A DNA stretch of 64,000 bases from Coprobacillus sp. (GTDB taxonomy: Bacteria; Bacillota_I; Bacilli_A; RFN20; CAG-826): contig JAJQAG010000004.1 of NCBI GenBank assembly GCA_021203905.1, positions 65,090-129,089 on the forward strand. The letters run 5' to 3'. Under the pieces are notes generated by a model. That model was not told where the DNA came from and did no database searches. It saw only the letters and a program-made list of their open reading frames with translations. Shown here piece after piece: positions 7,255 through 24,467 of the stretch (the stretch's first letter is position 1; each line of letters starts with the position of its first letter). A program made the position numbers and the translations under genes.

Positions 7255-7281
7255 AGGGAGTGAGAAAAAAACTCCCTTTTT
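7255..7281 (+). terminator. Intrinsic terminator downstream of dnaJ
   Basis: AGGGAGT-gagaaaaaa-ACTCCCT followed by TTTTT. Confidence 0.75.
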
Positions 7282-7332
7282 GCGTGTATTAACCAAAAAT
7301 TAACCGGATTTTTGATTATTTTGTGGGGTTTT

Positions 7333-7360
7333 TGTCAATTTTTGCGTTTTTCGCTAAAAT
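7333..7360 (+). promoter_or_regulatory. Putative SigA promoter for the island ABC operon (TTGTCA-16-TAAAAT)
   Basis: -35/-10-like hexamers with 16-bp spacing. An alternative TATAAT sits at 7434-7439, nearer the ATG at 7468. Confidence 0.4.
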
Positions 7361-7467
7361 ACCTAACAATACCCCCATTAAAGTCACTTATTTGTTTTTA
7401 TTTTTTCTCTTCACATATGCGCATAAATGTGTGTATAATACGTAAGATACGTGTGAGAGCGTACACT

Positions 7468-9807
7468 ATGACCTATTTAATCTGCTTATTAACTATTGTC
7501 ATCCCTGGGGGAATATATTCAATCCTTAGATTCTTAACAAAGATCTTCACTAAGGAAAGAATCGTTTGGTTATTAAGGACATTGGCTATCCTTGCTTTGG
7601 GTGTCTTTATCGTCAGATACTTCTCGACAGGAACGACCTTATTTACAGAAATCTTTGGTATGAAATCGAGTGAAGAAAATCCACAATTCTCTTCCTCTTT
7701 TACTTGTGTGATGGCGGATATCTGTGTGTGGTTTGAGTTCATGACGGTGATCATCGTGGTTCTCTACCCCTTCTTTATGAACAAATACCCCATCTTTATG
7801 AACTACGCTAAGTATCTCGGTCTCTTCTCCTGTGTCCTTAACATTGTCTTCCTTCGTTGGAGCGGCTTTGCCTTTACAGGAGATTACGCTTTAAACCTTA
7901 CCAGTGTGATGCTCGCGATAGAGATAGCCCTTGTCACACTCCTTTGTTTATATCCATACTCCGAAAAGGATGGGTATAAAATCTCTAAAAAAGAAGGAAA
8001 GGAAATGGGTATCTATCTTCCAGTAATCCTTCTTTTTTCTATCCCATTTTTCTTCTTCCAACCCCTAACTGGAAACCTTGGTCAATACCGCGCTGTGGAC
8101 TTTGATTTCTATCATCGTGTCTATCTCTATGCCGCGGTGGTTATCGTTATTGGGATGTATTTCTTACTCAGGAAGAGGGATCGGGAATTTATTCGTATGA
8201 TGTTGCTCTACGTCTCTCTAAGTATGCTGACAGCATACTTCTTCGATAAAGACTTTAACTGGTTCGCTTCTCCTAGTGAATATCCTCTTGGAATTATTGA
8301 TCTCTGTATGATCCTTATTCCCCTCTGTCTCTTGGTGAAGTGTAAGTGGCTGTATTACTTTACATTCCTTGTGGGAAGTGTAGGAGCCTTCGTCATGATG
8401 TTTATGCCCTCCTATAGTGCGAACTATGGCTTCTTCTATGCGGAGACGATGCAGTTCTGGATTGCTCAGATTGCGGTCTTTACTCTCCCCATCTTGATGG
8501 TGATGTGTCGAGTGTACGAGAGACCACAAAGTAAGGATTTAGGAGTGACTATAGGAGTCTTAGCCGCCTACGTCATTGTGGCAAGCTTTCTCTCTGGGTG
8601 GTTCAGCGGTCTATATGGAGAGTGCGACTTTGCCTATCTCAATAGTGCCTACCTTGCCTCTCAGATTGGAATGACCTCCTTCTTTAATAACAATGTGTGG
8701 ACTTTCTATCTTGGAGAGGTGGCGACTTCCATCCATCACTGGTATGTCTTAGCATACTTTGGCGTCTATGCCGTCTTTACAGTTATTGTCTATTATCTCT
8801 TTGTCTGGATCTTTTCCGTCCAAGACTACTTTACAAACATTGAAAATATTAATCATAAAATCCGCGTGGATGAATATATGAAAATGCAAGAACATCCCGG
8901 TGAAAAGGCAGGTGAGATTATGAATGAAGAAAGTGTCGACAAACTCGTTGTTAAGCATCTCTATAAGAGATACTCTCGTAGCAAGGTTTTATCCGTCGAA
9001 GATGCGAACTTTGAGGTGAGAGGGGGAGAGATCCTCGGCTTCCTCGGTCACAATGGCGCGGGTAAATCCACAATTATCAAATGTATCGTTGGTATTCAAC
9101 CCCCCTCAAGTGGAAGTGTGGAAATCAATGGCTACGATATCGCTAAAGAACCTGAAGAGGCCAAGATGCAGATTGGCTTCGTCCCTGATCACTATGCCTT
9201 ATATGAAAAACTCACCGGTCGTGAATATATTAACTATGTCGCTGACTTATATAAAGTCAGTAAAGAAGATAGAGATGAGCGATTAGAAAGATTATGCAAT
9301 AATCTTTCAATGACTAAAGCTATCGATAATCCTATTAATACCTATTCTCATGGTATGAAGCAGAAGACCGCGATTATGGCCGCCTTAATCCACGAGCCGA
9401 AACTCTGGATTCTCGATGAGCCACTCACGGGTCTTGATCCAACCTCAATCTATGAAGTGAAGGAGTGTATGAAAGAGCACGCCGCTAAAGGTAACATTGT
9501 CTTCTTCTCCTCTCACTTAATCGATGTCGTTGAGAAACTCTGTGATCGTATCATCATGATTAAAGAAGGTCACATCCTTCTCTCTGAACCCCTTGCGGAT
9601 ATTGAAGCGGAACACTCTGACCTCGAGCAATTCTATCTCGATGTCAATGCCACGCCCGTAGAGAGAAGAGTGGTCAATGATAAAGAGTTTAAGAAAATTA
9701 CTAAAGGAGAACCTAACGACTCTTACTTCTTTAAAACAGAAGATAAAGAAAAGAAGGTCAAAGTGAAAAAGGAAAAGGCTGAAAGTCAAGAAACTAGTGC
9801 GGAATAA
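7468..9807 (+). CDS. Atypical ABC protein with an N-terminal ~520-aa polytopic membrane domain fused to a C-terminal ABC ATPase domain. The ORF-track start at 7312 probably reads through the promoter region, with the likely start being the ATG at 7468.
   Basis: Walker A GHNGAGKST, signature-like YSHGMKQK, Walker B LWILDEPLTGLD, and an H-loop SSH. The Q-loop position reads IGFVPD, so D replaces the usual Q. The N-terminal half has many hydrophobic helices of unknown family. Confidence 0.75.
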   Translation: MTYLICLLTIVIPGGIYSILRFLTKIFTKERIVWLLRTLAILALGVFIVRYFSTGTTLFTEIFGMKSSEENPQFSSSFTCVMADICVWFEFMTVIIVVLYPFFMNKYPIFMNYAKYLGLFSCVLNIVFLRWSGFAFTGDYALNLTSVMLAIEIALVTLLCLYPYSEKDGYKISKKEGKEMGIYLPVILLFSIPFFFFQPLTGNLGQYRAVDFDFYHRVYLYAAVVIVIGMYFLLRKRDREFIRMMLLYVSLSMLTAYFFDKDFNWFASPSEYPLGIIDLCMILIPLCLLVKCKWLYYFTFLVGSVGAFVMMFMPSYSANYGFFYAETMQFWIAQIAVFTLPILMVMCRVYERPQSKDLGVTIGVLAAYVIVASFLSGWFSGLYGECDFAYLNSAYLASQIGMTSFFNNNVWTFYLGEVATSIHHWYVLAYFGVYAVFTVIVYYLFVWIFSVQDYFTNIENINHKIRVDEYMKMQEHPGEKAGEIMNEESVDKLVVKHLYKRYSRSKVLSVEDANFEVRGGEILGFLGHNGAGKSTIIKCIVGIQPPSSGSVEINGYDIAKEPEEAKMQIGFVPDHYALYEKLTGREYINYVADLYKVSKEDRDERLERLCNNLSMTKAIDNPINTYSHGMKQKTAIMAALIHEPKLWILDEPLTGLDPTSIYEVKECMKEHAAKGNIVFFSSHLIDVVEKLCDRIIMIKEGHILLSEPLADIEAEHSDLEQFYLDVNATPVERRVVNDKEFKKITKGEPNDSYFFKTEDKEKKVKVKKEKAESQETSAE

Positions 9808-9812
9808 AAGTT

Positions 9813-11555
9813 ATGGATGAGCAAGTAGTGGAAAAGAAGAGCTTTAAAGAGAGAATGTCTCACGTGTGGCACGCCGTGGCCTCTGTCTTTGCTACTGACC
9901 TTAGTGATGTCGCGGTACTCTACCGCATGCAGGTCAGAGAAAAGGTTGATTTCTCATATTTAAAGAGTGCCAAGAAAGCTCTTGGTCGTGGGCTTGTCCT
10001 TCTCGCCGAGTTTGCAATCGTCATGGCGGTTACTTATGGAATTCTTTGGGGTTGCCGTTATCTCGGTCTCTTCTCCCCTCTTGGCATTATTCCCACTTCC
10101 GTCATGAACGTTGTCTTCATCGTTCTCTTCCTCTTCTCCATCATCTCTTGTATGATTAGCCTTTCAAGAGATCTGTTTAAGGCGAAAGATAATGTCGTTC
10201 TTGAAACCTATCCAGTGAAGGCTAATGATATCTATCTCTCTAAGCTTGCGGTAGCGGTAGTGAAGGAAGTAAGAAGAACGATTATCTTCTATGTCCCAAT
10301 TTTCTTTGCCTACGCAGTGATTGCGGGACTAGCGGTCTACGCTTACTTCTGGATTCTCTTCTGGTTTATCTTCTTTACACTCTTTGAAATATTACTCGCG
10401 GGCATCTTAGCCCTTCCTGTCTACTATATTATTAGGTTCTTTAACCACTTCAACTGGGTAAAGATTGTCCTTGCGGTGGTCTTTGTGCTCGCTCTCATCT
10501 TCCTTGTGGTGTGGCTTGCCAGTATCATTCCCAGTAACATCAACCTCATAAGGACTTGGTCCGCAGTGAGTGAGTGGTTACGTGCTTTCCTCTCGTGGTG
10601 CACGGATAACCTGTATATCTTCTATGCCTTTACGACTTTCCTTGTGGGGAAACAACAAGGGGCAAGCATCATCTTCTTCACCAACTATTCTTGGTCAGTT
10701 CCTCTTATTATCATCGGTTGTATCCTCGTCTTCTTTGTCATCAATATCATTATCTCTAAGTACTTATACTTAAGGATTACGATGAGACAAAACGAGACCA
10801 CCCAAAAAGAGCACAAGGTCAAGAATAATGTCGCCCGCTCATCTTTTGGAGCGGGAGTCTACTACGAGAGTAAGAGAATCCTCTCCTATGGAGGAAAGCT
10901 AGCGACGATGATCACTGTGGTCATTGCCCTTCCACTGATGATTATCTTACTTAATCTTATCTATGCCGCGATGAAGACCAGACTCATGGGTGATTATCTC
11001 ATTGTCTGCTTTAACATCTTAGTTATTGTCCTGTTTACCACCTCCTCGAATGTGTGGGTGTCATCTATCTATTCAAAAGATGCGAATGCCCTGGTGATGG
11101 CAAGAACCTTCCCCACGAACTATGGGCAGACTCTCTTCCCGAGACTTGTCCTCCCCGCTTTAGTGACCGTTTTAACGGTTCTCCCTTCAACCTTTATCTT
11201 TACGATCCTGCAGGGGATTGGAGGTTGGGATATCCTATGGATAATTCTTATAGAATTATGCGTCTGTCTTGGTCATCTCCTTTGGAGTGCGGAGATTGAT
11301 TTCACGCATCCAAAACCTGAATTATATGAAACTAGTGGTAACGCTGCTTCTAACCCTAACGAAGCCAAGAGTATTGGTCTCTCCTTTGGATTAAGCGCGA
11401 TTACCATGGGACTTGTCTTAGTCTTCTTACTCATTAGCTCTAGTTATATGTATTTAAGAGTGCTATTATTTGCCGCCATCTTCCTCATATATCGTATTGT
11501 TTCCTTCTGTCTGAAGGGAAAGGCATTAAATAAACAAGAAGGAGGGAAGGAGTAA
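9813..11555 (+). CDS. Large polytopic membrane protein, a putative ABC-2-type exporter permease partner
   Basis: 580 aa with more than 12 predicted TM helices. It is translationally coupled to the upstream ATPase fusion, with a 5-nt gap. Confidence 0.55.
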   Translation: MDEQVVEKKSFKERMSHVWHAVASVFATDLSDVAVLYRMQVREKVDFSYLKSAKKALGRGLVLLAEFAIVMAVTYGILWGCRYLGLFSPLGIIPTSVMNVVFIVLFLFSIISCMISLSRDLFKAKDNVVLETYPVKANDIYLSKLAVAVVKEVRRTIIFYVPIFFAYAVIAGLAVYAYFWILFWFIFFTLFEILLAGILALPVYYIIRFFNHFNWVKIVLAVVFVLALIFLVVWLASIIPSNINLIRTWSAVSEWLRAFLSWCTDNLYIFYAFTTFLVGKQQGASIIFFTNYSWSVPLIIIGCILVFFVINIIISKYLYLRITMRQNETTQKEHKVKNNVARSSFGAGVYYESKRILSYGGKLATMITVVIALPLMIILLNLIYAAMKTRLMGDYLIVCFNILVIVLFTTSSNVWVSSIYSKDANALVMARTFPTNYGQTLFPRLVLPALVTVLTVLPSTFIFTILQGIGGWDILWIILIELCVCLGHLLWSAEIDFTHPKPELYETSGNAASNPNEAKSIGLSFGLSAITMGLVLVFLLISSSYMYLRVLLFAAIFLIYRIVSFCLKGKALNKQEGGKE

Positions 11556-11557
11556 AT

Positions 11558-11995
11558 ATGAAAAAGTCATCTCTATTCTTGATTGTTATTATCTATATTG
11601 TGTCAATTGTCGCCATTACATTCTTTGGTCAGTCCATTGAGATGGATCAATACAAAGTCTATATGTCTGATATTTGGATTAGCAATGAATCAGAAATTGT
11701 CTCTGGCAGCGATAACATTCGTAATATCAACATTACCTTTAATGATGATGAAGGGTGGGGCGGAATCATCCTTCACTATGAGTTCCTTCCTGAAGATGCG
11801 ACCGATAGTGACGCCGTGAAGTGGTCCTTATATGGTAACACTGGTATCTTAGCGGACACTGGTGAAGAGGTCGTTATTGCGGATATCGATGGGAAGGGAG
11901 AAGTGGTCTTCCATCGTCGAGGAATGGTGACCGCTTACGTGACCACAACCGATGGAAGTAACCTCGTCGATTCTGTGAGAATTACTTGCCGTTAG
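11558..11995 (+). CDS. Small membrane-anchored protein with a Big_2-like (bacterial Ig-like) C-terminal domain
   Basis: N-terminal TM/signal anchor. The C-terminus (…VVIADIDGKGEVVFHRRGMVTAYVTTTDGSNLVDSVRITC) resembles Big_2 domains. Confidence 0.5.
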   Translation: MKKSSLFLIVIIYIVSIVAITFFGQSIEMDQYKVYMSDIWISNESEIVSGSDNIRNINITFNDDEGWGGIILHYEFLPEDATDSDAVKWSLYGNTGILADTGEEVVIADIDGKGEVVFHRRGMVTAYVTTTDGSNLVDSVRITCR

Positions 11996-12028
11996 TGGAC
12001 TTTTTACGGAAAAATACTTAAAATATGA

Positions 12029-12056
12029 ATTGTGCCAAAAACGGCACAATTTTTAT
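12029..12056 (+). terminator. Intrinsic terminator after the island ABC operon
   Basis: ATTGTGCC-aaaaac-GGCACAAT followed by TTTTAT. Confidence 0.75.
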
Positions 12057-12113
12057 AAATTCCGTGTTTTTCAAGTCATTTTTATCAACGAAACGGCGAT
12101 ATTTTTAATTTTT

Positions 12114-12142
12114 TTGGTTTTTCAGTGGTTATTGTGTAGAAT
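12114..12142 (+). promoter_or_regulatory. Putative promoter of lipoprotein paralog 1 (TTGGTT-17-TAGAAT)
   Basis: Hexamers with 17-bp spacing. A good RBS AAGAGG lies 11 nt before the ATG at 12188. Confidence 0.35.
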
Positions 12143-12187
12143 ATAGTTAGTGAGAAGGATATAGGGATGAAGAAAGAGGCATAAGAT

Positions 12188-14842
12188 ATGAAAAAGAGAC
12201 TATTTTTAATGTCATGCATTGCGCTACTATCCGTGGGCTGTGTGACGATGACATCTTGTAAAGGAAAAGATGAAAGAAAGAATGAGTCTGTCAGTGTGGA
12301 GTTATATGGGCTTTATGCCTATTACTATCCAACCGATTCTATTGATTGGGATAGTGTCTATCTCGATGTCACTGTTTACGATAAAAAAGAAGAGATTGAT
12401 CATCTCACTCTCACTAGTGGAGAGTTTGATGTTAGTAAGCAAACTAGTGAGGAGAGCGACTTCGCTTTAAATACCTCTGGTCTTTATACAAATTCCATAA
12501 ATCAAAATACGATTCCGGAAGGGACTTATTCCCTTTCTTATTCTCTTGATTACAACGGAAGGGTCTATAGTGATAGTCTTTTCTCTATCACTGTGGCGAG
12601 CAATTTCTCTGGCATCCTTGAAGCGGAAACCTTCCAGCAACCAGATTCCATTATTAAATTCCTTCAGAATCAACAGAGAGTGGATAGTGAAGATAGTGAG
12701 AGTGAAAGCAATTTCATCGACTATGTCGATGAATATGTGGTTGGAGATGATAATCCCTTTATCTATCGTCCCACACTCGATCTTGTTCCCATTGGAGATA
12801 GCAGCGCTCGTCACTCCTATCCTAATGGTTATCCCGCTATTGTGACGGTAACTTACGACGGAAAAGAATTAGATTTAGATAATAACGAATATGTGACCTT
12901 TGATAGCGCAACCTTTGGTTTCCAGTTCACTAGCGAAGCCATTGGAAAGAGTTTTACTCTTTCTGTCTTTCCAAAAGACTTTAATGCGGACTGGTCTGGT
13001 CTTGCTCTTCAAACCCAGTCATTAACTGTCACTGTTCAAGATGGATACAATGTGTTTAAGGCTCTTGATTTAGGTCGTATGGCCCTTTCTAGTGGCGCGG
13101 ACTACTACATTGATGAAACCAATCACACGAGAACAGATAATAAAGGGAATTACTATGTCCCCTTTAGTAACTATATGTCCGAAGAGAATATTCTCTTTGT
13201 TCAAGATGAAACCACCGGACAAGCTCATTTTGAAAAGATTCGTTACGACGAGACTTGGTATAACTTCCTCGAAAGTCGTGGAGAGACTAATCTCAACGCT
13301 GTCAACGGCATCTTCTTACACGATGACATGGTGATTACGAACAATGATCTTCCTAGTGAATTCATCATTGGAGAAGATGAAGCGAAGTTCTTTGGAGTGG
13401 AATACGACGATATGGTGGGTTCCCTTAGAGATGAAGTCACTATCTATGACCACCAAATGGAAGAAGACTTTACTCTTAATGGTAATCTCTTTGATCTCGA
13501 CGCTAGTCATCTAAAGTGGGCGATGACTCGCCACTTAAACGATGATCCACTAGAGGGAGATGAAAGTGAGAGACAATTGATTTATTACACCGAGAATAAT
13601 ACCTCTTATGATGAAGGTCATAATGTCTTACTCTACGCTGATAACCACATTACCAAGAAAGATGATAGTAAATATCTTAAAGAGGACTTCTTAACCACTC
13701 ACGATGGTGAGAATAAGAAAGTCTATACCTTAAAGAACGTGGAACTCTTTGGTAACCAAGAGAGAAACTGGAATTTTGATCAAGCGAATGAAACTGAGGA
13801 TGCCTCTAAGGCCAGTGGATGTATGACTTGTTTTGAAAGCCGCGCTGGTAGCGCGGTGGTAAATAACGTCATCGTGAAGCACTTCCTTACTTCCTTCTAT
13901 TCTAATTACACTCTCAGTGGAGTGAAATGCTTAAATATCAGTGACTCAAAAATCTATGACTGCTATGGATGCGCTCTTTATGCGAGATACTCCGCAGAAA
14001 ATGTCATCTCTAATTCTGTCTTAAGACGTTTTGGAGGACCCGTTGTCGTCATGATGAGTGGAGAGGGAATCTGTGCTCATAGTGGTTATGATTATTCGAA
14101 AGTCGGATTTGAATTTACCAGTGATGTCGATTGTGAGGCCAACCTCTATGGTGGTGAGTCATGGTTTGATATTTACAATATCAAATCATATATCTCCTAT
14201 CTCAACTGGTTTGATGTTCTCTTCACCGGTGGTAGTCTCCTTGGGATGTTCTCCTTCCCTTCTATGGGTAAGACCATGTTTAATCCTGAGAGAAGCGATG
14301 GAGATTACTTTAATCTCATCGGTGGAGGATTTGATTATCGTGTCTATGGTGGATATCCTATCTATACCTCCCTTTCCTATAATGGAGTGGACTACACTTA
14401 CGACAGCCACTACGGACAAGAATTTAGTTATGTTGAGGATGGTGATCCTGATGATCCCGACAACCCCGATTACACCTACACTGATATCGATGGCTTTGAG
14501 CCCGATACCGAGTGCTTCTCTTACCTTGTGAACTCCTTCATTAATGATTCTAGTATGTCGAGTGTGGATCTCAGTGGTTTCCTCACCTTAACCACTCTCC
14601 CTGTCTTTATGACTAACACTGGAGAAGTCTTTGCCCTTGCTAGTGGCACAAAATTACTTGGACTTCCCCTTGATATGTATCTTGTTGATCTTAAGGCTTA
14701 CTACAATCGTGAGGACGAGTCCTCAAATGTTTTAAATTATAAATTTACTTCTCTTAATCCTGAGGATGACACGGTGTTTATGTATCTTAACATTGCGGGC
14801 ATTGTCTTAACCCTTTGTTTCTCCCTCTACGATTGTGACTAG
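12188..14842 (+). CDS. Large surface lipoprotein, paralog 1 of a 3-member tandem family (possibly beta-helix-type repeats)
   Basis: Signal peptide plus lipobox (LLSVGC). 884 aa. About 75-80% identical to paralog 2. Has a C-terminal hydrophobic tail (YLNIAGIVLTLCFSLY). Confidence 0.85.
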   Translation: MKKRLFLMSCIALLSVGCVTMTSCKGKDERKNESVSVELYGLYAYYYPTDSIDWDSVYLDVTVYDKKEEIDHLTLTSGEFDVSKQTSEESDFALNTSGLYTNSINQNTIPEGTYSLSYSLDYNGRVYSDSLFSITVASNFSGILEAETFQQPDSIIKFLQNQQRVDSEDSESESNFIDYVDEYVVGDDNPFIYRPTLDLVPIGDSSARHSYPNGYPAIVTVTYDGKELDLDNNEYVTFDSATFGFQFTSEAIGKSFTLSVFPKDFNADWSGLALQTQSLTVTVQDGYNVFKALDLGRMALSSGADYYIDETNHTRTDNKGNYYVPFSNYMSEENILFVQDETTGQAHFEKIRYDETWYNFLESRGETNLNAVNGIFLHDDMVITNNDLPSEFIIGEDEAKFFGVEYDDMVGSLRDEVTIYDHQMEEDFTLNGNLFDLDASHLKWAMTRHLNDDPLEGDESERQLIYYTENNTSYDEGHNVLLYADNHITKKDDSKYLKEDFLTTHDGENKKVYTLKNVELFGNQERNWNFDQANETEDASKASGCMTCFESRAGSAVVNNVIVKHFLTSFYSNYTLSGVKCLNISDSKIYDCYGCALYARYSAENVISNSVLRRFGGPVVVMMSGEGICAHSGYDYSKVGFEFTSDVDCEANLYGGESWFDIYNIKSYISYLNWFDVLFTGGSLLGMFSFPSMGKTMFNPERSDGDYFNLIGGGFDYRVYGGYPIYTSLSYNGVDYTYDSHYGQEFSYVEDGDPDDPDNPDYTYTDIDGFEPDTECFSYLVNSFINDSSMSSVDLSGFLTLTTLPVFMTNTGEVFALASGTKLLGLPLDMYLVDLKAYYNREDESSNVLNYKFTSLNPEDDTVFMYLNIAGIVLTLCFSLYDCD

Positions 14843-14881
14843 CTCTTACAAAGACAAATCTCTTTTAAACCAATACGAGAA

Positions 14882-14905
14882 AAGGGAAGAGAAATCTCCC
14901 TTTTT
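14882..14905 (+). terminator. Intrinsic terminator after lipoprotein 1
   Basis: AAGGGA-agagaaatc-TCCCTT followed by TTTTT. Confidence 0.55.
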
Positions 14906-14943
14906 CTTATTATTCGGTTTTACTCTTTTTAGGGAAATAGAGG

Positions 14944-14979
14944 ACATTTGTGGCACAAATGTTCGTTTTTTTTTTTTTT
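14944..14979 (+). terminator. Second hairpin plus T14 tract downstream of lipoprotein 1 (terminator with an unusually long U-tract)
   Basis: ACATTTGTG-g-CACAAATGT palindrome followed by tcg and then 14 consecutive T (14966-14979). Confidence 0.55.
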
Positions 14980-15103
14980 AAAATAAAAAACGCTGAATTA
15001 TTTAAAATTAGTTTATCTTTTAGAAAAAGATATTTATAATAAACGCGATTAGACAAAAGGGGACCCCTACGGGGGTGAATGATGGAAGGAAAAAGCGCAA
15101 AAA

Positions 15104-17746
15104 ATGAAAAGAAGAATGTTTATAATGTCGTGTATCGCTCTGATGTCAGTGGGGTGTGTGACGACAACTTCATGTGAAGAAATAGAAAAAAGATTAAATG
15201 AGTCTCTCAGTGTGGAGTTATATGGACTTAATGCCTATTATTCGCCCACTGATTCAATCGATTGGGAGAGTGTCTATCTCGATGTGACAGTCTTCAACAA
15301 GAAAGAAGAAGTCAATCACTTTACTCTTACTGATGGAGAGTTTGATGTGATTGAGCAAACTAGTGAGGAAAGCGGGTTTGCTCTTGATACCTCTGGTCTC
15401 TACACTAATAGTGTTAATGAAAATACAATTCCGGAAGGGACCTATCCCCTTACCTACTATTTTACCTATAATGAACAAGTCTATAGCGGTAGTCCTTTCT
15501 CTATCGTGGTGGCCTATGACTTCACTGCGGCTTATGAAGTAGTGGCCTTCCAGCAACCAGACACTATTATTAAATTCCTTCAGAATCAACAGAGAGTGGA
15601 TCGTGAAGACGATGTGAGTGAAAGCAATTTCATCGACTATGTCGATGAATATGTGGTTGGGGATGATAATCCTTTTATCTATCGTCCCACCCTCGAACTT
15701 ATTCCCACGGGAGAGGAGGACGCTACTCACCTCTATCCCACTAATTATCCAGTGAATGTCACTGTCACTGATGTTAGTGGAGAAGACGAAGAAGAATTAG
15801 ATCTTGATAATAATGAATATGTGACCTTTGATAGTGCGACCTTTGGTTTCCAATTCACTAGTGAAGCCATTGGAAAGAGTTTTACTCTTTCCGTCTATCC
15901 AAGAGGTTTCAGTCAAGATTTGTTTGGTCTTGCTATTCAAGCCCAGACTTTAACGGTCACTGTTCAAGATGGATATAACGTTTATAAACCTCTTGATTTA
16001 GGTCGTATGGCCCTTTCAAGTGGAAAGGATTACTACATTGATGAGGAAAATCATAGCAGAGTCAATAGTAGGGGATATTACTATGTTCCCTTCTCTAACT
16101 ATGTCACCGAATCAAAAGTTCTCTTTGTTCAAGATGAAGACACCGAGCAAGTCCATTTTGAACGAATTCAATATGACGAGACTTGGTATAACTTCCTTGA
16201 AAGTCGTGGAGAGACTGACTTAACCGCGGTTAACGGCATCTTCTTACACGATGACATGGTGATTACTAATAACGATATTCCTAGTGAATTTGTCATTAGT
16301 GAAGAAGAAGCCAAGTTCTTTGGAGTGGATTACGACGATATGGTGGGCTCTCTTAGAGATGAGGTCGCCATCTACGATCATCAGATGGAAGAGGACTTTA
16401 CCCTTAATGGTAATCTCTTCGCTCTTGATGCGAGCAACCTTAAATGGGCGATGACTCGTCATGGCTATGATGGTTCTGATGATGAATCTGGAAGAGAAAT
16501 AGAATATTATGCTGAGAATAATACTTCTTATGACGAAGGTCATAATGTCCTACTCTATGCGGATAATCACTTTACCCAAGAGGATGATGGTGATTACCTT
16601 AAAGAGGACTTCTTAGCCACTCACGATGGTGAGAATAAGAAGGTCTATACCTTAGAGAATGTCGAGCTCTTTGGTAACCAAGAGAGAAAATGGAATTATG
16701 ATCAAGCGGATGAGAATGAGGATGCCTCTAAGGCCAGTGGTTGTATGACCTGTTTTGAAAGCCGTGCTGGGAGCGCGGTGGTAAATAACGTCATCGTGAA
16801 GCACTTCCTTACTTCCTTCTATGCGTTTTACACTATTGCGGGAGTGACCTGCTTAGATATTAGTGACTCGAAGATCTATGACTGCTATGGAACCGCTTTA
16901 TACGCTCGCTTCTCCGCTGATAACATTATCTCTAACTCCGTCTTAAGACGTTTTGGAGGACCAGTGGTCGTCCTTATTAGTGGTGAAGGCGTCAGCGCTC
17001 ATAGTGGTTATGATTACTCTCGAGCGGGATTTGTATTTACCAGTGATGTCGATTGCGAGGCTAACCTCTATGGTGGTGAGTCATGGTTTGATATTTACAA
17101 TATCAAATCATATATCACTTATCTCAACTGGTTTGATGTTCTCTTTAGCGGTGGCAAACTCCTTGATCTTTACGAATTTAATTCCATGGGTAAGACACTC
17201 TTTAATCCTGAAAGAAGTGATGGAGATTACTTTAATCTCATCGCTGGGGGATTCGACCGTAAGATTAATGGTGGATATCAGATCAATACCTCGATTACCT
17301 ATAATGGAGTGGAGTACACCTATAATAACCACTACGGACAAGAATTCTCTCATACTGGTCAGCAATTCTACTTCACTGACATTGAAGGCTTTGAACCAGA
17401 TACGGAGTGCTTCTCCTATCTTGTGAATAAATTTATTGATGATACAAGTCTCTCATGTGTGGATCTCAGTGGCTATCTTACTTTAGAAACTCTCCCTGTC
17501 TTTATGACTAACACTGGAGAGGTCTTTGCCCTTGCTAGTGGCACACAACTCTTTGGCGTCCCACTAAGTATGTATCTTCTTGATCTTAAGGCTTATTACA
17601 ATCGTGGTGAGGAAGATTCTAGTTCAGCTTCAGACTATAAGTTTACCTCTCTTAATCCTGAGGATGACACGGTGTTTATGTATCTTAATATTGGAGGGAT
17701 CATCTTAACCCTTTGCTTCTCTCTCTACGACACTATTAGTGAATAA
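15104..17746 (+). CDS. Large surface lipoprotein, paralog 2
   Basis: Signal peptide plus lipobox (LMSVGC). 880 aa. Long stretches of near-identical DNA shared with paralog 1. Confidence 0.85.
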   Translation: MKRRMFIMSCIALMSVGCVTTTSCEEIEKRLNESLSVELYGLNAYYSPTDSIDWESVYLDVTVFNKKEEVNHFTLTDGEFDVIEQTSEESGFALDTSGLYTNSVNENTIPEGTYPLTYYFTYNEQVYSGSPFSIVVAYDFTAAYEVVAFQQPDTIIKFLQNQQRVDREDDVSESNFIDYVDEYVVGDDNPFIYRPTLELIPTGEEDATHLYPTNYPVNVTVTDVSGEDEEELDLDNNEYVTFDSATFGFQFTSEAIGKSFTLSVYPRGFSQDLFGLAIQAQTLTVTVQDGYNVYKPLDLGRMALSSGKDYYIDEENHSRVNSRGYYYVPFSNYVTESKVLFVQDEDTEQVHFERIQYDETWYNFLESRGETDLTAVNGIFLHDDMVITNNDIPSEFVISEEEAKFFGVDYDDMVGSLRDEVAIYDHQMEEDFTLNGNLFALDASNLKWAMTRHGYDGSDDESGREIEYYAENNTSYDEGHNVLLYADNHFTQEDDGDYLKEDFLATHDGENKKVYTLENVELFGNQERKWNYDQADENEDASKASGCMTCFESRAGSAVVNNVIVKHFLTSFYAFYTIAGVTCLDISDSKIYDCYGTALYARFSADNIISNSVLRRFGGPVVVLISGEGVSAHSGYDYSRAGFVFTSDVDCEANLYGGESWFDIYNIKSYITYLNWFDVLFSGGKLLDLYEFNSMGKTLFNPERSDGDYFNLIAGGFDRKINGGYQINTSITYNGVEYTYNNHYGQEFSHTGQQFYFTDIEGFEPDTECFSYLVNKFIDDTSLSCVDLSGYLTLETLPVFMTNTGEVFALASGTQLFGVPLSMYLLDLKAYYNRGEEDSSSASDYKFTSLNPEDDTVFMYLNIGGIILTLCFSLYDTISE

Positions 17747-17772
17747 CCTAAGAAATTACTAATGAATACAGA

Positions 17773-17795
17773 AAAGGACCTCGTGGTCCTTTTTT
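17773..17795 (+). terminator. Intrinsic terminator after lipoprotein 2
   Basis: AAAGGACC-tcgt-GGTCCTTT followed by TTTTT. Confidence 0.8.
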
Positions 17796-17925
17796 GGTAG
17801 CGAAAGAAGGAAAAAACGTAAAAAAATATTTACAATACTTTTTTTCTTTATTGAAAGAAAGTGTTAGTTATATAATAACTATGATTGAGTATAGGAAATG
17901 GTATTATAACAAGGAAGTAAGTTAT

Positions 17926-20448
17926 ATGAAAAAGAAAGCCCTTTTATTAGCCACCACCGCAGCATTAGCATTATGCTCCTTCTCCCTCTCTTCATGTAAT
18001 AAAAAGAAAAACAAAGATGTGGAAGAAGAGACTGTTAGTGTGGAAGTCTATGGTTTACAACCATATTATCTACCCACGGATAAGATTGATTGGGATAGTA
18101 TCTATCTAGAAGTGGAAGAGACTTATTACCATCATGGAGAATTTGATGTCACCAGTAAGAGTAAGAGTGAAACGGAATTCACTCTTGATACTTCTGGTCT
18201 CTACACATATACCAGCAATCAAAACACGATTCCTGAAGGGAGTTATCCGATTTCGTATTCCCTCGAATATGAAGGGACAAGCTACAGCGCGAAACTATTT
18301 ACCGTTTACGTGACTTCTAATGTCACCTCTCTCCTTCAAGCGGAATCTTTCTCCCAACCAGAATCAATTATTACCTGGGAGAGAAATCAAACGAGAGTGG
18401 ATACTTCCTCTAGTCAAGATGAGAGTAATTTCATTGAAGGCAAGAGTGAGTACACAGTGGGTTGTGATAATCCCTTTATCTATCGCCCAGTTTTAGAGAT
18501 CAGCGCGAATGACACTAAAAACACCACGGATGTCTATGCCTTCCCAAAGAGCTATGCGGCAAATGTGACTGTCACCCTTGATGGGACGGCGCTTGATGTC
18601 TCAAGTAACGAGTATGTCTCCTTTGATGAGACAGACTTTGGTTTCCAGTTCACTGAAGCGGCTATTGGTAAGACCTTTACCCTCACCATCGCTCCAAGAG
18701 ACTTTACTTCCATTTGGGGAATGTATGTCCTTGAAAGTCAAAGTGTCACGGTGACTGTTCAAAAAGGATGGAATGTCAATAACGCCATCGATCTTGGAAG
18801 AATCAATCTTCTTAGTGATGAGTATAAACCATATATTGACTACTACGAGTACGCAAAACCCAAAGTGAACGAAAAGGAAGTCGCCGGAATCTTCTGGGAC
18901 TCCTCTCGTGGCTACTATAATGAATACAACTATAAGATTTGGGAAAACTTCCTTACTAGTAAAGGAAGAGATGATCTTACTTATACCAGTGCGATATATC
19001 TCCACGATGACATCAATGTCACCATTGATGATATTCCCAGTGAGTTTATCGTCTCTCAAGAAGAGATCAACGCTCAACCAAACCCCAGTCTATATAGCAA
19101 TGATGTCCTTAACTCCGTTAAGGATGGAGTGTATATCTATACTCATTATCTCCAAGGTGAAGACTTTACCCTTGATGGGAATCTCTTCTCCATCCGTTGC
19201 TCCTCTCTTAAGTGGTGCATGACTAGGGTTGATAATGAACAAGGTGATTTTAGATACTACGCGACGAATAAAGCGGACCGCTATAAGATGTGTCACGCGG
19301 CTCTCTTCTCCATTAACGATGTCGCGGATAAGAGTGAAAGTGGACTTCCTAGTGCCCTAACAGAAAGATATAGTGCCACCTTTACTAATATTGAAGCTCA
19401 CGGAAACCAAGAGAGAATTAATCCAGAAGAAGCGACAAGCTATGATAGTCAACTCGCTAGTGGTTGCCTCATCTTTCTTAGAAGTGCTTCCAGTAATACG
19501 AAAGTGACTAATGTTTTAGCGAAGAACTTCCTTCAAGGTTATTATTGCTGCTACTCCGATGATAGCTACTGTGCCTTTGAAGTTGATAAATGTAAAATCT
19601 ACGATTGCTATGGATCTCCTTTCTTTGGTTATGGCAGTAGTAAGAATAAGACCACTAATAGTATTATGTCTCGTTTCGGTGGCCCAATCGTCGTCCTTAA
19701 TAGTGTCTATGGCAATAAATTCCAGCATTGTGGTTGGGAGATAGATGAGTGTGATTATGAATCTCTTCTCATCGGGACAGAAGCGTGGTTTGATATCTTA
19801 GGAATCTCCTCTGTTATTCCTTTCTTTACCGATATTGATAATTGCTTTACAGGAAACGGTAATGTCTTTATCCCTGGTTTTACCTCTAAAGGCTATGGTA
19901 AGTCCCTTAAGAATGAAGATGGCTACTTTGATGTTATAGGTGTCGGTAATGATGCCTCAAGCGGAATGATCGGTGGAGAAGTCGTTGATATCTCGATGAC
20001 TTTCGATGGAGATACTTATTCCTATTCGAGTGATGAAGTTCCTAGTGAACCTGACCCCGAAAACTTTGCTTGGGTCGCTAATGCGTATTATTCAGATTAT
20101 GGAACTCTATATGTCGATGGGGGCTTAATGTGCGAGTTAGCGGGTAATCGTCTCCCCATCTTTATGACGAACACCGGAAAGATCTTTGGTATCCTTCTCT
20201 CAAATAGTAGGACCGCTCTCGTCGATATGGTGGACTTCTATACGAAGTACATTGCTATTGATAATGAGTATTCTAATCGAGATAAGACGGACGCTAACGC
20301 TGAAGAAGCCTTCTGGATGGAGCACTATCCTGAGATGGTGGATATCGAATTTGATGAGGATGATACCTCCGTTTTTGGAATTGATATCACCTCAGCGATG
20401 ACCATTTGTCTCGCCCTAAGACTCTTTGATTATCCCTACGCGGAATAA
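17926..20448 (+). CDS. Large surface lipoprotein, paralog 3, a more divergent family member. The ORF-track start at 17794 reads through the promoter region, and the ATG at 17926 has an AAGGAAG RBS.
   Basis: MKKKALLLATTAALALCSFSLSSC signal/lipobox. Conserved family blocks (VSVEVYGL, NQNTIPEG, NPFIYRP, FGFQFTEAAIGKTFTL, VTVTVQ, LDLGR, LHDD, FTLDGNLF, KIYDCYG, RFGGP.VV). Confidence 0.8.
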   Translation: MKKKALLLATTAALALCSFSLSSCNKKKNKDVEEETVSVEVYGLQPYYLPTDKIDWDSIYLEVEETYYHHGEFDVTSKSKSETEFTLDTSGLYTYTSNQNTIPEGSYPISYSLEYEGTSYSAKLFTVYVTSNVTSLLQAESFSQPESIITWERNQTRVDTSSSQDESNFIEGKSEYTVGCDNPFIYRPVLEISANDTKNTTDVYAFPKSYAANVTVTLDGTALDVSSNEYVSFDETDFGFQFTEAAIGKTFTLTIAPRDFTSIWGMYVLESQSVTVTVQKGWNVNNAIDLGRINLLSDEYKPYIDYYEYAKPKVNEKEVAGIFWDSSRGYYNEYNYKIWENFLTSKGRDDLTYTSAIYLHDDINVTIDDIPSEFIVSQEEINAQPNPSLYSNDVLNSVKDGVYIYTHYLQGEDFTLDGNLFSIRCSSLKWCMTRVDNEQGDFRYYATNKADRYKMCHAALFSINDVADKSESGLPSALTERYSATFTNIEAHGNQERINPEEATSYDSQLASGCLIFLRSASSNTKVTNVLAKNFLQGYYCCYSDDSYCAFEVDKCKIYDCYGSPFFGYGSSKNKTTNSIMSRFGGPIVVLNSVYGNKFQHCGWEIDECDYESLLIGTEAWFDILGISSVIPFFTDIDNCFTGNGNVFIPGFTSKGYGKSLKNEDGYFDVIGVGNDASSGMIGGEVVDISMTFDGDTYSYSSDEVPSEPDPENFAWVANAYYSDYGTLYVDGGLMCELAGNRLPIFMTNTGKIFGILLSNSRTALVDMVDFYTKYIAIDNEYSNRDKTDANAEEAFWMEHYPEMVDIEFDEDDTSVFGIDITSAMTICLALRLFDYPYAE

Positions 20449-20477
20449 TCGCCAAGATCTCTACTCAGATATAAAAT

Positions 20478-20501
20478 GACTAGACGATGTCTAGTCTTTT
20501 T
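20478..20501 (+). terminator. Intrinsic terminator after lipoprotein 3
   Basis: GACTAGAC-gat-GTCTAGTC followed by TTTTT. Confidence 0.8.
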
Positions 20502-20599
20502 ATTTATCCAGTTATTTGTCACTGTCTAAATATTTTTCTTTTTATTTTCTCCCAGTTTTCTCTCTTTCTCCCCTAATAGATATATAACGAGAGGAAAAA

Positions 20600-21841
20600 A
20601 TGTATTTCGTTAAACAAGAAACCACCTATGACTGTCTCTTTACCTGCTTAAAGATTCTTTTAGCCTCTTGTTATCGAGAGAAGAAGTATCTCTATCTAGC
20701 GAGAAAAAAGGATGAAGCTTATTCCTTTTATGATGTCAAAGAGATTGGACAAGAGTATGGTGTCGAGCTTGTTGGTTATCAAACAGAAGAGAAAGATCTC
20801 TCTTCTTTTAAAGATCAAACCATTATCCTCTCCATCAATAAAGACGGCCGGCGTCACGCGGTCATCTTACATAAAGTGGGAAAGAAGAGATGTCAAATTA
20901 TTGACCCAAGTATAGGAAGGCTACGGGTCAGGACATCCTTACTTTTAGAGTGGTGGGACAGGACCTTTTTACTGCTTGAAAATAAATCCCTTCTCGAAAA
21001 TTCATCACTTCAACATCGACATCGTTTTACCCCAAATGACTGTTCCACCCTCTCTCTTAAAGGTCGTGGCCTCGACCTTTATCTCTATAAGTTTCTCTCT
21101 TCTCTTTTTATCATCCTCGGTCTCTTTTTTGTCACCTCGACCTATTTTCTTCTCCCTATCTGTTTCTTCGCTCTCTTCGCCCTTTTTGAAGTTCTCTATC
21201 AAGTAGTGTTAATTAAGAAGATGAAGGAAGTCGATAATCTCTTTTTCCTTTCCCTGAAGCACCCCCTACACACAAAAGAAGAATTAAAGACTTATGAGGA
21301 GTATAAAAGTCAACTCATCTCTCTTCCCGTGATGAGTATGTATGCGATGCTTGTCGCCCTGTTTCTCACCTTTCTATTAGCCTATAACTCTTTATATAAT
21401 CTCATCTTTGTCGGTGTGGTTTTTCTTTTCGCCCTCGTTAAAAGACTCTTTCTTTCTCACCAAACGGAGAGAAAGAAGAGAGAGATTGATAATAAGGAAG
21501 ATGATCTTTTTAAGCAAGAGAGCATCGAAGAGTTTAAAAAGAGTCTCTCTTCCCTTCACACTGAAGTTTATTCCTATACCTATCAAGGCTCCATTTATAA
21601 CTATATCGAATTATTCTTTCTCATCCTCGCGATTATCTTATCGATGTATCTCCAACATATTCTTTCACTTTCTTATGTCTTACTTTACTTTGCCACTTCT
21701 TACTACCTAAAGGAGAACATCGATAAGATAACTTCCCTCCCCACTAGTCTTAGTGACTACACTCTCGTCAAGAGCAAATACTCCACATTGATCTATCACA
21801 ATCAACATGACACGAAAAAAGAAGAAGTTGTGAGTGGATAG
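20600..21841 (+). CDS. C39 (bacteriocin-processing, double-glycine leader) cysteine peptidase domain fused to a 4-6-TM membrane domain, with no ABC ATPase domain (orphan or truncated PCAT-like protein)
   Basis: N-terminus matches the C39 catalytic motifs: Q-x5-DC (VKQETTYDC), HAVILHKV…IIDPS and EWW, aligning with ComA/CvaB peptidase domains (QVDQMDCG; HYYVV…IADP; EEW). Hydrophobic helices follow. The gene ends 48 nt before the next gene. Confidence 0.8.
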   Translation: MYFVKQETTYDCLFTCLKILLASCYREKKYLYLARKKDEAYSFYDVKEIGQEYGVELVGYQTEEKDLSSFKDQTIILSINKDGRRHAVILHKVGKKRCQIIDPSIGRLRVRTSLLLEWWDRTFLLLENKSLLENSSLQHRHRFTPNDCSTLSLKGRGLDLYLYKFLSSLFIILGLFFVTSTYFLLPICFFALFALFEVLYQVVLIKKMKEVDNLFFLSLKHPLHTKEELKTYEEYKSQLISLPVMSMYAMLVALFLTFLLAYNSLYNLIFVGVVFLFALVKRLFLSHQTERKKREIDNKEDDLFKQESIEEFKKSLSSLHTEVYSYTYQGSIYNYIELFFLILAIILSMYLQHILSLSYVLLYFATSYYLKENIDKITSLPTSLSDYTLVKSKYSTLIYHNQHDTKKEEVVSG

Positions 21842-21937
21842 ATTTTAACGAGAACTATTCCCTAATTTCTTTCCCTCACATGTCCCTAAATGCTCTCTTA
21901 TCTTTACTTAGAGAGAGAAACTGCTATAATAAAGGCA

Positions 21938-23524
21938 ATGAAAAAACATGTTATTACCTTAGCCTTAACGATTGTGGTTTCTTTAAGTGCACTTTCTCTT
22001 TCAGGTTGTGATTCATCCTCCTCTTATGAAAGAGTGGATTGCGGGAAATACGGAACAATCTATCAAATTTTCCCCTATTCTTTTGCGGATAGTAATGGAG
22101 ATGGGATTGGAGATATCAAAGGGATTAGCGATAAGCTCGATTATATTGCGGATCTCGGTTTTACAGGAATTTGGATTAATCCTGTTCAACCCTCGCCCAC
22201 CTATCACAAATACGACACCACTGATTACTATTCTATCGATCCTGACTTTGGAACGATTGATGATTATAAAGCGATGGTGGAAAAGGCTCACAGCCTTGAT
22301 TTAACTGTATATCTTGACCTTGTTATTAATCACACCTCCACCCAACACGATTGGTTTAAGCAAAGCGCGAATGCTCATGTGAGTGGAGATACATCAAATG
22401 CCTACTATAACTACTATTATTGGAACCAAGGTGGGAGTGGAGATAATGGAACCTATTCTCGATATGGTTCCTCCGATTGGTACTATAGCCACTATAGCGG
22501 GGATACCCAGATGCCACGACTTAACCTTCAATGGGTTCTAGATGATCCTGAATGCGCTCTGGCTAAAGAACTAGAAAATATCATGGAGTTTTGGCTCGTT
22601 GAGTGTGATGTTGATGGCTTTAGACTCGATGCGGTGACCTCCTATTTTCCCTCTGGTGACACGACCGCTTTCCTCACTTGGTTAGTAGATACCGCTAGAA
22701 GTTATAAAGCTGATTGCTATATCGTTGGGGAAGGTAGCTGGGGAACAAGTAGTAGTAACTCTTCTTATCTAGAGAGCGGGATTGATTCCTTCTTCTGCTT
22801 TGATGACGCAAAGACCAGCGGTTATATTTTAAAAACTTTATCTAATGGGAATGCGAGACTCCTTGCTAGTGGTATTAATAACAATCTCTCCGTCTTTGAT
22901 AATGTGAACAATATTCCCTCTCCCTTTATTGTCAATCACGATTGTAATGGTCGTTTAGTCTCGATGGCCAATGCTCGTAAAGAGACACAAAATCTCAAGT
23001 TTGCGTACGCAACGTTACAGATGTATACCGGTTCCACCTATCATTACTATGGTGATGAAATCGGAATGGCCTGTGCTTCAACCACCAAAGACGAAGATGC
23101 CAGAGCCCCATTCTACTGGGGAGATAGCTACACTCCTGACTATGTTAGTAATAGCACATCTATCTCTCAGGATGAGGCCTATCCTTATGGAAGCGCAAAG
23201 AAACTCTTAAGTAAAAAAGACTCCTCCGTGAACTATGTGAGAAAAGTTAATCAGGTGAGAAATAGTCACCCCGCGATCTTTAGTGGCGGTATTGAAGAGA
23301 TCTATGAGAGCGCTGATCGCACTTTCTCCGCCAATGTGAAGACTTGTGATAGTGAATCTCTTCTCATCCTTCTCAATGCTTCTAAAACTGATAGTTATAC
23401 TTACACAAATGATACAAGCTATACCTCGATTATCGCGGATCTATCCACCATCAGTGGAACGAAACTTCAGAGTCAAGGAAGCGAGTTAATCGTTCCGCCT
23501 CTCTCTATTTGCATCCTTGGTTAA
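21938..23524 (+). CDS. GH13 alpha-amylase-family lipoprotein (alpha-glucosidase/amylase-like). The likely start is the ATG at 21938, since the ORF opens at 21890.
   Basis: Lipobox LSLSGC. GH13 conserved regions DLVINHTS, GFRLDAV, IVGEGSW and FIVNHD. Confidence 0.85.
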   Translation: MKKHVITLALTIVVSLSALSLSGCDSSSSYERVDCGKYGTIYQIFPYSFADSNGDGIGDIKGISDKLDYIADLGFTGIWINPVQPSPTYHKYDTTDYYSIDPDFGTIDDYKAMVEKAHSLDLTVYLDLVINHTSTQHDWFKQSANAHVSGDTSNAYYNYYYWNQGGSGDNGTYSRYGSSDWYYSHYSGDTQMPRLNLQWVLDDPECALAKELENIMEFWLVECDVDGFRLDAVTSYFPSGDTTAFLTWLVDTARSYKADCYIVGEGSWGTSSSNSSYLESGIDSFFCFDDAKTSGYILKTLSNGNARLLASGINNNLSVFDNVNNIPSPFIVNHDCNGRLVSMANARKETQNLKFAYATLQMYTGSTYHYYGDEIGMACASTTKDEDARAPFYWGDSYTPDYVSNSTSISQDEAYPYGSAKKLLSKKDSSVNYVRKVNQVRNSHPAIFSGGIEEIYESADRTFSANVKTCDSESLLILLNASKTDSYTYTNDTSYTSIIADLSTISGTKLQSQGSELIVPPLSICILG

Positions 23525-24070: not shown

Positions 24071-24465
24071 AAGAAGAATTAATTAATAAAGCTAAAGAAG
24101 CGATGAATCTCTCTTATTCTCCATATTCTCATTTTAAAGTTGGAGCGGCGCTTGAAACCACAGGTGGAGAGATATATGTGGGCACAAACATTGAGAATGC
24201 CTCTTATCCCCTATGTATGTGCGCGGAGCGTAACGCTCTTTATAATGCCTATTGTCATGGAGTGAAGAAAGAGGATATTACCACTTTAGTGGTAATTGGA
24301 GAGACAGATGAGCCCATCTCTCCTTGCGGGGCGTGTCGTCAAGTGATGAGTGAACTCCTTTCTAAAGATTGTGTCATCGTTTTATGTAACACTAAAGGAG
24401 AGGTAAAAGAAACCCGTATTGATGAACTCCTTCCCTCTTCCTTTAAAGGAGAAGATTTAAAGTAA
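24067..24465 (+). CDS. cdd: Cytidine deaminase
   Basis: CAERNA and PCGACRQ zinc-binding motifs. 132 aa. Confidence 0.92.
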   Translation: MKEELINKAKEAMNLSYSPYSHFKVGAALETTGGEIYVGTNIENASYPLCMCAERNALYNAYCHGVKKEDITTLVVIGETDEPISPCGACRQVMSELLSKDCVIVLCNTKGEVKETRIDELLPSSFKGEDLK

Positions 24466-24467
24466 GG

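Follow-up and report, generated by a model that had tools for sequence, protein, structure and literature searches.

The window analysed here is a stretch of 64,000 nucleotides from a metagenome-assembled genome of Coprobacillus sp. (Erysipelotrichales; contig JAJQAG010000004.1 of assembly GCA_021203905.1, positions 65,090 to 129,089), and its subject of interest is the interval between dnaJ and ybeY. Eight genes occupy this interval, all of them on the + strand according to the open reading frame (ORF) calls. An earlier note made from the sequence had read them as a single accessory island; the eight ORFs were found where it had placed them, apart from corrections of three mechanically called starts. 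Comparison with relatives showed the interval to be a composite of three things rather than one island: a conserved cassette at 7468-20448, a gene of the lineage backbone for a C39-peptidase membrane protein, and a separate GH13 amylase gene. The cassette is one copy of a conserved four-component unit in which the lipoprotein gene is triplicated. On both sides the gene order is of the Bacillus type, as the earlier note had stated, with hemW, hrcA, grpE, dnaK and dnaJ at 1232-7251 and ybeY, cdd, era and recO at 23609-26085, all above their NCBIfam cut-offs.

The first cassette gene (7468-9807) encodes a fusion protein of 779 amino acids (aa), which combines a TMEM164-fold domain with an ATP-binding cassette (ABC) ATPase. 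Its start was moved from TTG 7312, where the island had been thought to begin, to ATG 7468, because the alignment of homologues, the 779-aa NCBI product P0037, a promoter-like site at 7410-7439 and a hairpin with T-run directly after the dnaJ stop (about 7255-7281) all point to the later codon. The promoter-like site (TTCACA-18-TATAAT, + strand) headed the scan with 11 of 12 matches, as a consensus match only. The second gene (9813-11555) encodes a 580-aa polytopic permease, with which the ATPase presumably pairs in the membrane, and the third (11558-11995) a small bitopic protein of 145 aa with an N-terminal anchor and one immunoglobulin (Ig)-like ectodomain, which is a proposed adaptor. These three genes are packed as one operon. 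A terminator-like hairpin with a T-run follows at 12028-12051 (+ strand, consensus match only); the scan scored it on the - strand, and the + strand also reads as a hairpin and then a T-run. Three tandem lipoprotein genes complete the cassette: lipoprotein 1 (884 aa, lipobox Cys24) at 12188-14842, its tandem paralogue lipoprotein 2 (880 aa) at 15104-17746, and lipoprotein 3 at 17926-20448, the last with 840 aa from its corrected start at 17926, like product P0005. In the consensus scan, further terminator-like hairpins on the + strand were seen after lipoprotein 1 (14942-14964, a 10-bp stem followed by a T-run) and after lipoprotein 3 (20478-20496), the latter at the right end of the inserted cassette. 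Outside the cassette lie the C39 gene (20600-21841), in which a peptidase domain is joined to a polytopic membrane domain without an ATPase, and the gene of the GH13 alpha-amylase-type lipoprotein (21938-23524, start corrected to 21938). The earlier note had described the individual products aptly, including an ABC fusion with a polytopic N-terminus, a 580-aa polytopic membrane protein, an orphan C39 membrane protein and a GH13 lipoprotein with its lipobox. Its assignment of a promoter and a terminator to each unit holds no further than consensus matches go; the three transporter genes form one operon.

The composite nature of the interval was observed in related loci. In L001, whose lipoprotein is 84% identical, all eight genes follow dnaJ. 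In L094 (DnaJ 83% identical) the transporter genes and the lipoproteins follow dnaJ as far as the contig end. The junctions of L092 and L093 (DnaJ 71-72% identical) hold only dnaJ, the C39 membrane protein gene and ybeY, and since these cassette-less junctions still read dnaJ-C39-ybeY, the C39 gene belongs to the lineage backbone. The comparison thus showed that, in one sub-lineage of the Coprobacillus-like bacteria, the six genes at 7468-20448 were inserted between dnaJ and the native C39 gene. L092 stems from the same assembly as L005, in which the cassette lipoprotein adjoins rpsD; in L006, a fuller locus with a lipoprotein identical to that of L005, the cassette lies between tyrS and rpsD. 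The presence of the cassette at the dnaJ site varies among relatives. The GH13 gene is a separate insertion between the C39 gene and ybeY, an ordinary amylase common to the window and L001. No housekeeping genes were displaced by the insertion. The island had been proposed to stand in place of prmA-rsmE-mtaB and phoH-yqfF, and none of these five genes is found at the dnaJ-ybeY junction of L092 and L093; prmA, rsmE and mtaB are also missing among 10 further window genes that were checked.

Neither an integrase nor a transposase was detected among the interval genes (ORF list and Pfam/NCBIfam scans), as had been noted before, and no direct or inverted repeats were found around the interval. A windowed check of the guanine-plus-cytosine content gave 0.37-0.44, the same as in the flanks. 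A mobile genomic island was rejected on these grounds, and the characterization as a cell-surface module that varies by lineage, and not a classical mobile element, holds.

The conservation of the cassette was assessed with an independent search seeded on the ATPase motifs (full-length alignment). At least 600 stretches of species-representative genomes matched, and the best 80 loci were kept. Hidden Markov models (HMMs) made for the five cassette parts were then scanned across all collected loci. More than 50 genomes of uncultured Bacillota carry the gene set in unchanged order, at chromosomal sites that are unrelated to one another. In the seven genomes that were reached via the lipoprotein, its gene always adjoins those of the fusion, the permease and the small protein, with sizes of 737-850 aa, 540-586 aa and 134-165 aa, respectively. 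Among the ATPase-seeded loci, all 56 TMEM164-positive modules with enough flanking sequence (46 with a fused and 10 with a split domain) possess a lipoprotein partner. The order fusion - permease - small protein - large lipoprotein is nearly universal at fused-domain loci with enough sequence; the exceptions are a few loci with the lipoprotein upstream and two with tandem double cassettes (L007, 12496-21245; L029, 1231-16609). Where the lipoprotein HMM missed, a large lipobox protein still comes after the small protein. The neighbours of the cassette vary and include dnaJ, tyrS/rpsD, pnp, rpsB-tsf and a LytTR two-component system with a polysaccharide cluster.

The family is restricted in size. 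The large lipoprotein is rare, with 36 matches among 5.8 billion clustered proteins, and an exhaustive phmmer search of 1.84 billion representatives with the N-terminal domain of the window fusion yielded 109 clusters, mostly of 700-830 aa, from which we conclude that the fused family is small. The hosts are uncultured Bacillota of gut, rumen and sediment, among them Christensenella and Christensenellales-like Clostridia, RF39-like 'Bacilli', Acholeplasmataceae, Izemoplasmatales, Anaeroplasmataceae and Coprobacillaceae. A fourth lipoprotein paralogue, P0011 (LUC31_02415, 894 aa), is encoded on the source contig outside the window, about 58 genes upstream as judged from locus tags. It shares 34% identity with lipoprotein 1 and 35% with P0009 of L004, and it may mark a second cassette on this contig. 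Exact-sequence look-ups of the window lipoprotein and of P0011 gave no entry. Full-text literature searches revealed no account of the cassette or of its Pfam families, and no known function was found for any of its components. A search with PADLOC gave no match to a known anti-phage defence system; the similarity was limited to generic ABC/AAA ATPases, and the reading as a defence island was rejected on this basis.

The fusion protein has about 12 transmembrane (TM) helices with a TMEM164-fold core (roughly residues 205-450), followed by the ATPase (roughly 490-740). The C-terminal ATPase matches PF00005 (2e-30). Its best NCBIfam models, TIGR01188 drrA with 209 bits and GldA with 204 bits, both remain below their cut-offs of 312 and 403, respectively. 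By these scores the ATPase resembles the ABC-2/DrrA subfamily (DrrA, NodI and GldA models), which is a similarity and not an equivalog membership. Among solved single ATPase domains, 4rvc, 1vpl and 4yer come closest, and other solved relatives comprise ABCA1/3/4/7, LptB, NosF and TagH. The N-terminal domain of the window protein itself matches the TMEM164 fold with the conserved core of six TM helices, and its homologues match the Pfam family TMEM164 (PF14808) with 51-65 bits at a cut-off of 25. When the profiles of the N-terminal domain and of the permease were compared with PDB sequences, no match was obtained.

TMEM164 is a dimeric lipid acyltransferase which acts via an acyl-Cys123 intermediate and His181 (PMC12830759; bioRxiv 10.1101/2022.07.06.498872). 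Of 65 distinct TMEM164-like domains, 59 retain a Cys/His pair, with the Cys in the motif P-[LFI]-[HQ]-L-C-N, the His about 57 residues further on and an aromatic residue four positions before the His. In human TMEM164, C123 and H181 are 58 residues apart and Y177 stands four positions before H181. Spacing and conservation suggest that the cassette Cys/His correspond to human C123/H181, although the cassette motif reads HLCN, unlike the human N121-P122-C123-H124. The window copy has lost both residues, with Ile277 in place of the Cys and Gln334 in place of the His, and so lacks the presumed catalytic dyad. The loss extends to the whole sub-lineage with the dnaJ site (window, L001 and L094), in which Ile, Val or Thr replaces the Cys and Gln or Gly the His. 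The ratio of nonsynonymous to synonymous substitution rates (dN/dS) of the TMEM164-like domain between the window and L001 was 0.077 at a dS of 0.89, which indicates strong purifying selection. A domain that has lost its dyad and is still under purifying selection must have a role independent of the dyad.

The fusions of L054, L055 and L059, all from metagenome-assembled genomes (MAGs) of Acholeplasmataceae, match the profile of the N-terminal domain weakly and also lack the Cys and His; from their sequences this appears to be a second, independent loss or divergence of the dyad. In the tandem pair of L007, one fusion retains the Cys/His pair and the neighbouring copy has Met for His, which suggests that live and dead copies of the domain can coexist in one genome.

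The permease gene stands directly after the ATPase gene in all of the more than 80 loci. In the window permease no Pfam match was detected at E<=0.01. Ten of 16 aligned homologues match PF16949 ABC_tran_2 (best 1.3e-13) and three match ABC2_membrane_4; among the precomputed matches of orthologues, PF09847 12TM_1 was present in L007 and L094, and PF16949 also in L094. The window permease is accordingly classed as ABC-2-like by its homology to family members, not by a direct match. The small protein gene follows the permease in almost all TMEM164-positive loci. By hhalign (98.2%) the protein is related to the N-terminal part of the TM-anchored Big_2 proteins (310 aa) found at split-type loci, and Big_2 itself was scored in its larger homologues, which bears out its earlier description as a Big_2-like small surface protein.

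For the lipoprotein, a structural model (predicted local distance difference test 82.8, predicted template modelling score 0.84) comprised two N-terminal Ig-like domains, a right-handed beta-helix and a C-terminal beta-sandwich. The beta-helix core was evident, and NosD of the NosDFY system was among the structural matches. A Foldseek comparison with the PDB found no relative of the whole protein, only weak matches to tandem Ig domains. The signal peptides of the three paralogues end in LSVGC, MSVGC and SLSSC. A lipoprotein signal peptide with lipobox is present in all 50 distinct family members, with an invariant Cys24, and lipidation via Lgt and Lsp is predicted from the lipobox. Since these signals are of the Sec type, no dedicated exporter is needed. 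As first proposed, the three genes are tandem paralogues with products of about 850 aa, all of which carry lipoboxes. Copies 1 and 2 share 77-87% of their DNA sequence and 76-78% of their protein sequence, and copy 3 is about 72% identical in conserved DNA blocks, with 37-39% protein identity to lipoprotein 1. The genes of lipoproteins 1 and 2 (12188-17746) were recently duplicated in tandem; the period is about 2.9 kb, and DNA identity ranges from 77% to 87% by block. A comparison of 46 lipoprotein family members found invariance at structural residues (Gly, Asn, Phe). There is no invariant catalytic acid; conservation of the candidates D387, D415, D591 and E657 reaches only 80-85%.

The type of partner protein was found to track the TMEM164-like domain. 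By their permeases, the loci group into four clades of 46, 10, 11 and 11 modules. Clade 1 (46 modules) has the fused TMEM164-ATPase and a lipoprotein partner. Clade 2 (10 modules) has a separate TMEM164-like gene, a 310-aa TM-anchored Big_2 protein and a lipoprotein. Its sister clade 3 (11 modules; L057, L060, L061, L063-L066, L072, L079, L085 and L090) has neither a TMEM164-like gene nor a lipoprotein. The gene after its permease encodes a Big_2 protein of 800-2090 aa that is TM-anchored at the N-terminus; in all, one or two such proteins (770-2090 aa) follow, each with as many as seven Big_2 domains. Clade 4 (11 modules) has no TMEM164-like gene and no partner. A lipoprotein partner thus accompanies 56 of 56 TMEM164-positive modules versus at most 2 ambiguous cases among 23 TMEM164-negative ones. 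The lipoprotein form occurs exactly where the TMEM164-like domain is present, in a pattern which rests on only about two evolutionary transitions. The beta-helix core of the lipoproteins recurs in the TM-anchored partners of clade 3 (hhalign 95.4%, E 1.8e-8), and the small protein is homologous to their unit of TM anchor plus first Ig domain. The shared beta-helix core and the shared anchor/Ig unit therefore indicate one ectodomain family, either helix-tethered beside the permease or split off as a lipoprotein.

The two genes outside the cassette have their own context. The C39 protein matches Peptidase_C39 (5.8e-14) and has no ABC ATPase domain; NF045998 reached 27 bits at a cut-off of 500. 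Its Q..DCG, His and Asp-Pro motifs are conserved. A C39 domain with a membrane domain of roughly 6 TM helices and no ABC ATPase is the product of a single conserved dnaJ-ybeY gene in Coprobacillus-like genomes; in L092 (about 11080-12253) and L093 (about 11180-12378) the called starts omit the Cys motif, which is present in frame upstream. At cassette loci outside the dnaJ site the C39 gene was not found. The GH13 protein matches Alpha-amylase (2.2e-74), carries the lipobox LSLSGC and has the alpha-amylases 7jjn, 7jjt, 9fz2 and 1wza as its closest solved structures. Its gene stands beside a cassette only in the window and L001; it is absent in L092 and L093, and L094 ends before the position in question. 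A polysaccharide-utilisation locus composed of the GH13 and the beta-helix proteins was considered and rejected on account of this distribution, the exporter-type ABC and the lack of a solute-binding protein.

Several genes further out are without assignment to a family. The gap between lepA and hemW holds a large gene and an 84-94-aa gene in both L092 (2347-4424) and L093 (3097-4808), with no family match. The ORFs that correspond to them in the window, 45-1016 and 1021-1296, have no NCBIfam match either. A small RDD-domain gene lies between hemW and hrcA in L092 and L093, and not in the window or L094.

The nearest described arrangement is NosDFY, which together with the lipoprotein NosL serves nitrous-oxide reductase maturation (PDB 7o0y). 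The cassette is no member of this family: there is no NosD match in Pfam or NCBIfam, and the similarity is one of generic fold. The cassette loci found via the lipoprotein contain no nos genes, and their hosts are fermentative gut MAGs without a nosZ context. Unlike NosDFY, the cassette has a single permease chain of 12 TM helices and a beta-helix protein which is itself a lipoprotein with Ig-like domains, and it has in addition an Ig-like adaptor as a protein of its own and a TMEM164-fold domain fused to the ATPase. The ATPases of the ABC-2 or type V lipid and glycan exporters DrrAB, TagGH, Wzm-Wzt/KpsMT and ABCA are similar to that of the cassette at the level of the subfamily, and the permease relatives match ABC-2-like Pfam families. 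In contrast to the cassette, none of a TM-anchored Ig-like protein, a beta-helix lipoprotein and an ATGY domain is obligatory in these exporters. Within the ATGY superfamily (AIG1/TMEM164/GPC1/YwaF/YpjA) the cassette domain is set apart by its fusion to an ABC ATPase, by about six extra N-terminal helices and, in the window copy, by the lack of both Cys and His. PCAT1, ComA and LagD, the peptidase-containing exporters, resemble the C39 protein in the succession of a C39 domain and a membrane domain; the latter differs from them in that it has no ATPase, that no double-glycine substrates are present and that it is encoded by a backbone gene. In FtsEX with PcsB/CwlO and in LolCDE, the ATPase serves an outside partner or a lipoprotein and not solute transport, which is the same concept as the one proposed below for the cassette. 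FtsX/MacB-type permeases, with their large extracytoplasmic domains, belong to a different fold class from the cassette permease, and no homology was detected. Each part of the cassette comes from a known superfamily, and there are already described ABC machines that serve outside partners; for the combination no description was found. Where the earlier note had paired an ABC machine, a C39 peptidase and lipoproteins, the ABC-lipoprotein unit is real, and the C39 and GH13 proteins are outside it.

Gene order, folds and conservation lead us to favour, with a confidence that stays somewhat below even, a reading in which the lipoproteins are docked extracytoplasmic partners of an ABC-2-type machine, held there by the adaptor and the TMEM164-like domain in a NosDFY-like manner. 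Two TMEM164-fold/ATPase fusions and the 12-TM permease would form the membrane machine. The lipoproteins would leave the cell via Sec and signal peptidase II and not via the ABC machine; the earlier view of the lipoproteins as its cargo conflicts with the Sec-type signals in 50 of 50 family members and with an ATPase that resembles the ABC-2/DrrA type rather than that of C39-linked peptide exporters. Outside, the small membrane-anchored Ig-like adaptor would hold the lipoproteins at the machine, and the lipid-binding TMEM164-like domain would hold them as well, via their lipid anchor. ATP hydrolysis could then act on or through the docked beta-helix protein, either as a conformational drive or in a substrate hand-off; the beta-helix protein NosD, which works with NosFY in a like manner, would be the precedent. 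For most of the family, an additional acyl transfer by the TMEM164-like domain is probable. The window lineage has lost the presumed catalytic residues, and there the domain would act non-catalytically.

We regard it as possible, though doubtful, that the cassette represents an undescribed class of ABC machines dedicated to one cognate surface lipoprotein. The ATGY/TMEM164-fold domain would recognise the lipid anchor and remodel it where Cys and His are intact, and the permease would provide the lipid donor or a mechanical drive; the window version would be dead in its catalysis and nonetheless selected.

As a rather unlikely alternative, exporter and surface enzyme could act one after the other without a stable complex. 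The ABC-2 machine would export or flip a lipid-linked glycan, a glycolipid or a lipid, perhaps acylated by the TMEM164-like domain, and the beta-helix lipoproteins would process the product as depolymerase, epimerase or lyase. The ATPase subfamily and the beta-helix fold would both fit such a division of labour, but most cassettes are situated among unrelated housekeeping genes with no glycosyltransferases near, and an enzyme of this kind is difficult to reconcile with the missing invariant acid. The distribution of TM-anchored partners on the one hand and lipoproteins plus TMEM164 on the other would also be left unexplained.

A further possibility, unlikely as an account of the family, is an acyl-remodelling of lipoproteins. 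The ATGY superfamily includes, besides TMEM164, the Bacillus subtilis protein LhaT (YpjA), which N-acetylates lipoproteins with a lipid-borne donor whose flippase is unknown (PMC12345273). Apart from LhaT, no functional work on the bacterial YwaF, PF16949, PF09847, DUF2074 and ATGY families was found in the literature, and the full-text searches gave no activity for any bacterial protein of the TMEM164/YwaF branch. By analogy to LhaT, the permease and ATPase would bring an acyl-donor lipid to the outer leaflet and the Cys/His domain would acylate the N-terminus or the anchor of the cognate lipoprotein, with the window copy as a dead derivative. Such a function would account for a TMEM164-like domain that occurs exactly where the partner is a lipoprotein and for the widely retained Cys/His pair, and the acyl-Cys intermediate of TMEM164 (PMC12830759) is in line with it. 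On the other hand, purifying selection on the dyad-less domain of the window, L001 and L094 implies that catalysis is not its sole role, and the need for an ABC machine in TMEM164-less cassettes with TM-anchored partners would be unexplained.

It is quite improbable that the genes are mere neighbours, with coat or adhesin genes travelling alongside a drug- or peptide-resistance ABC exporter and no functional coupling. The transcription units look separate in the consensus scan, the lipoproteins diverge fast and are duplicated, and their Ig-like domains weakly resemble S-layer domains, but chance association would hardly keep the gene order across orders of Bacillota and many insertion sites, nor does it fit a TMEM164-less clade that encodes its partner right after the permease. 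Finally, a single export module, with processing and export of the large lipoproteins by the ABC machine together with the C39 double-glycine peptidase, is extremely improbable: the genes are adjacent in the window and L001 and the C39 catalytic motifs are intact, but the C39 gene is missing from all other cassette loci and stands alone at dnaJ-ybeY in relatives with the cassette elsewhere, the lipoproteins have Sec/lipobox signals and no double-glycine leaders, and the C39 protein and the ABC-2-like ATPase are separate. A system for bacteriocin or double-glycine export was likewise rejected, with a C39 protein that lacks an ATPase and is not co-conserved with the cassette and with lipoproteins that bear lipobox signals.

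As a compact, portable unit of four parts, the cassette occurs in many uncultured Bacillota of gut and rumen. In it an ABC ATPase is joined to a lipid-acyltransferase fold, which has only recently been understood in human TMEM164 and Bacillus LhaT, and this TMEM164-like fold is tied to a surface lipoprotein dedicated to the unit. The beta-helix lipoproteins, which are large, duplicated and evolve fast, probably rank among the major surface structures of the host-associated carriers. The cassette offers an entry point to the role of the bacterial TMEM164/YwaF branch and to the question of how acyl donors or energy reach lipoproteins outside the monoderm membrane. If a machine dedicated to one lipoprotein proved true, the bacterial TMEM164/YwaF branch would for the first time be given a function, and ATP would be coupled to lipoprotein biogenesis in monoderms in a new way.

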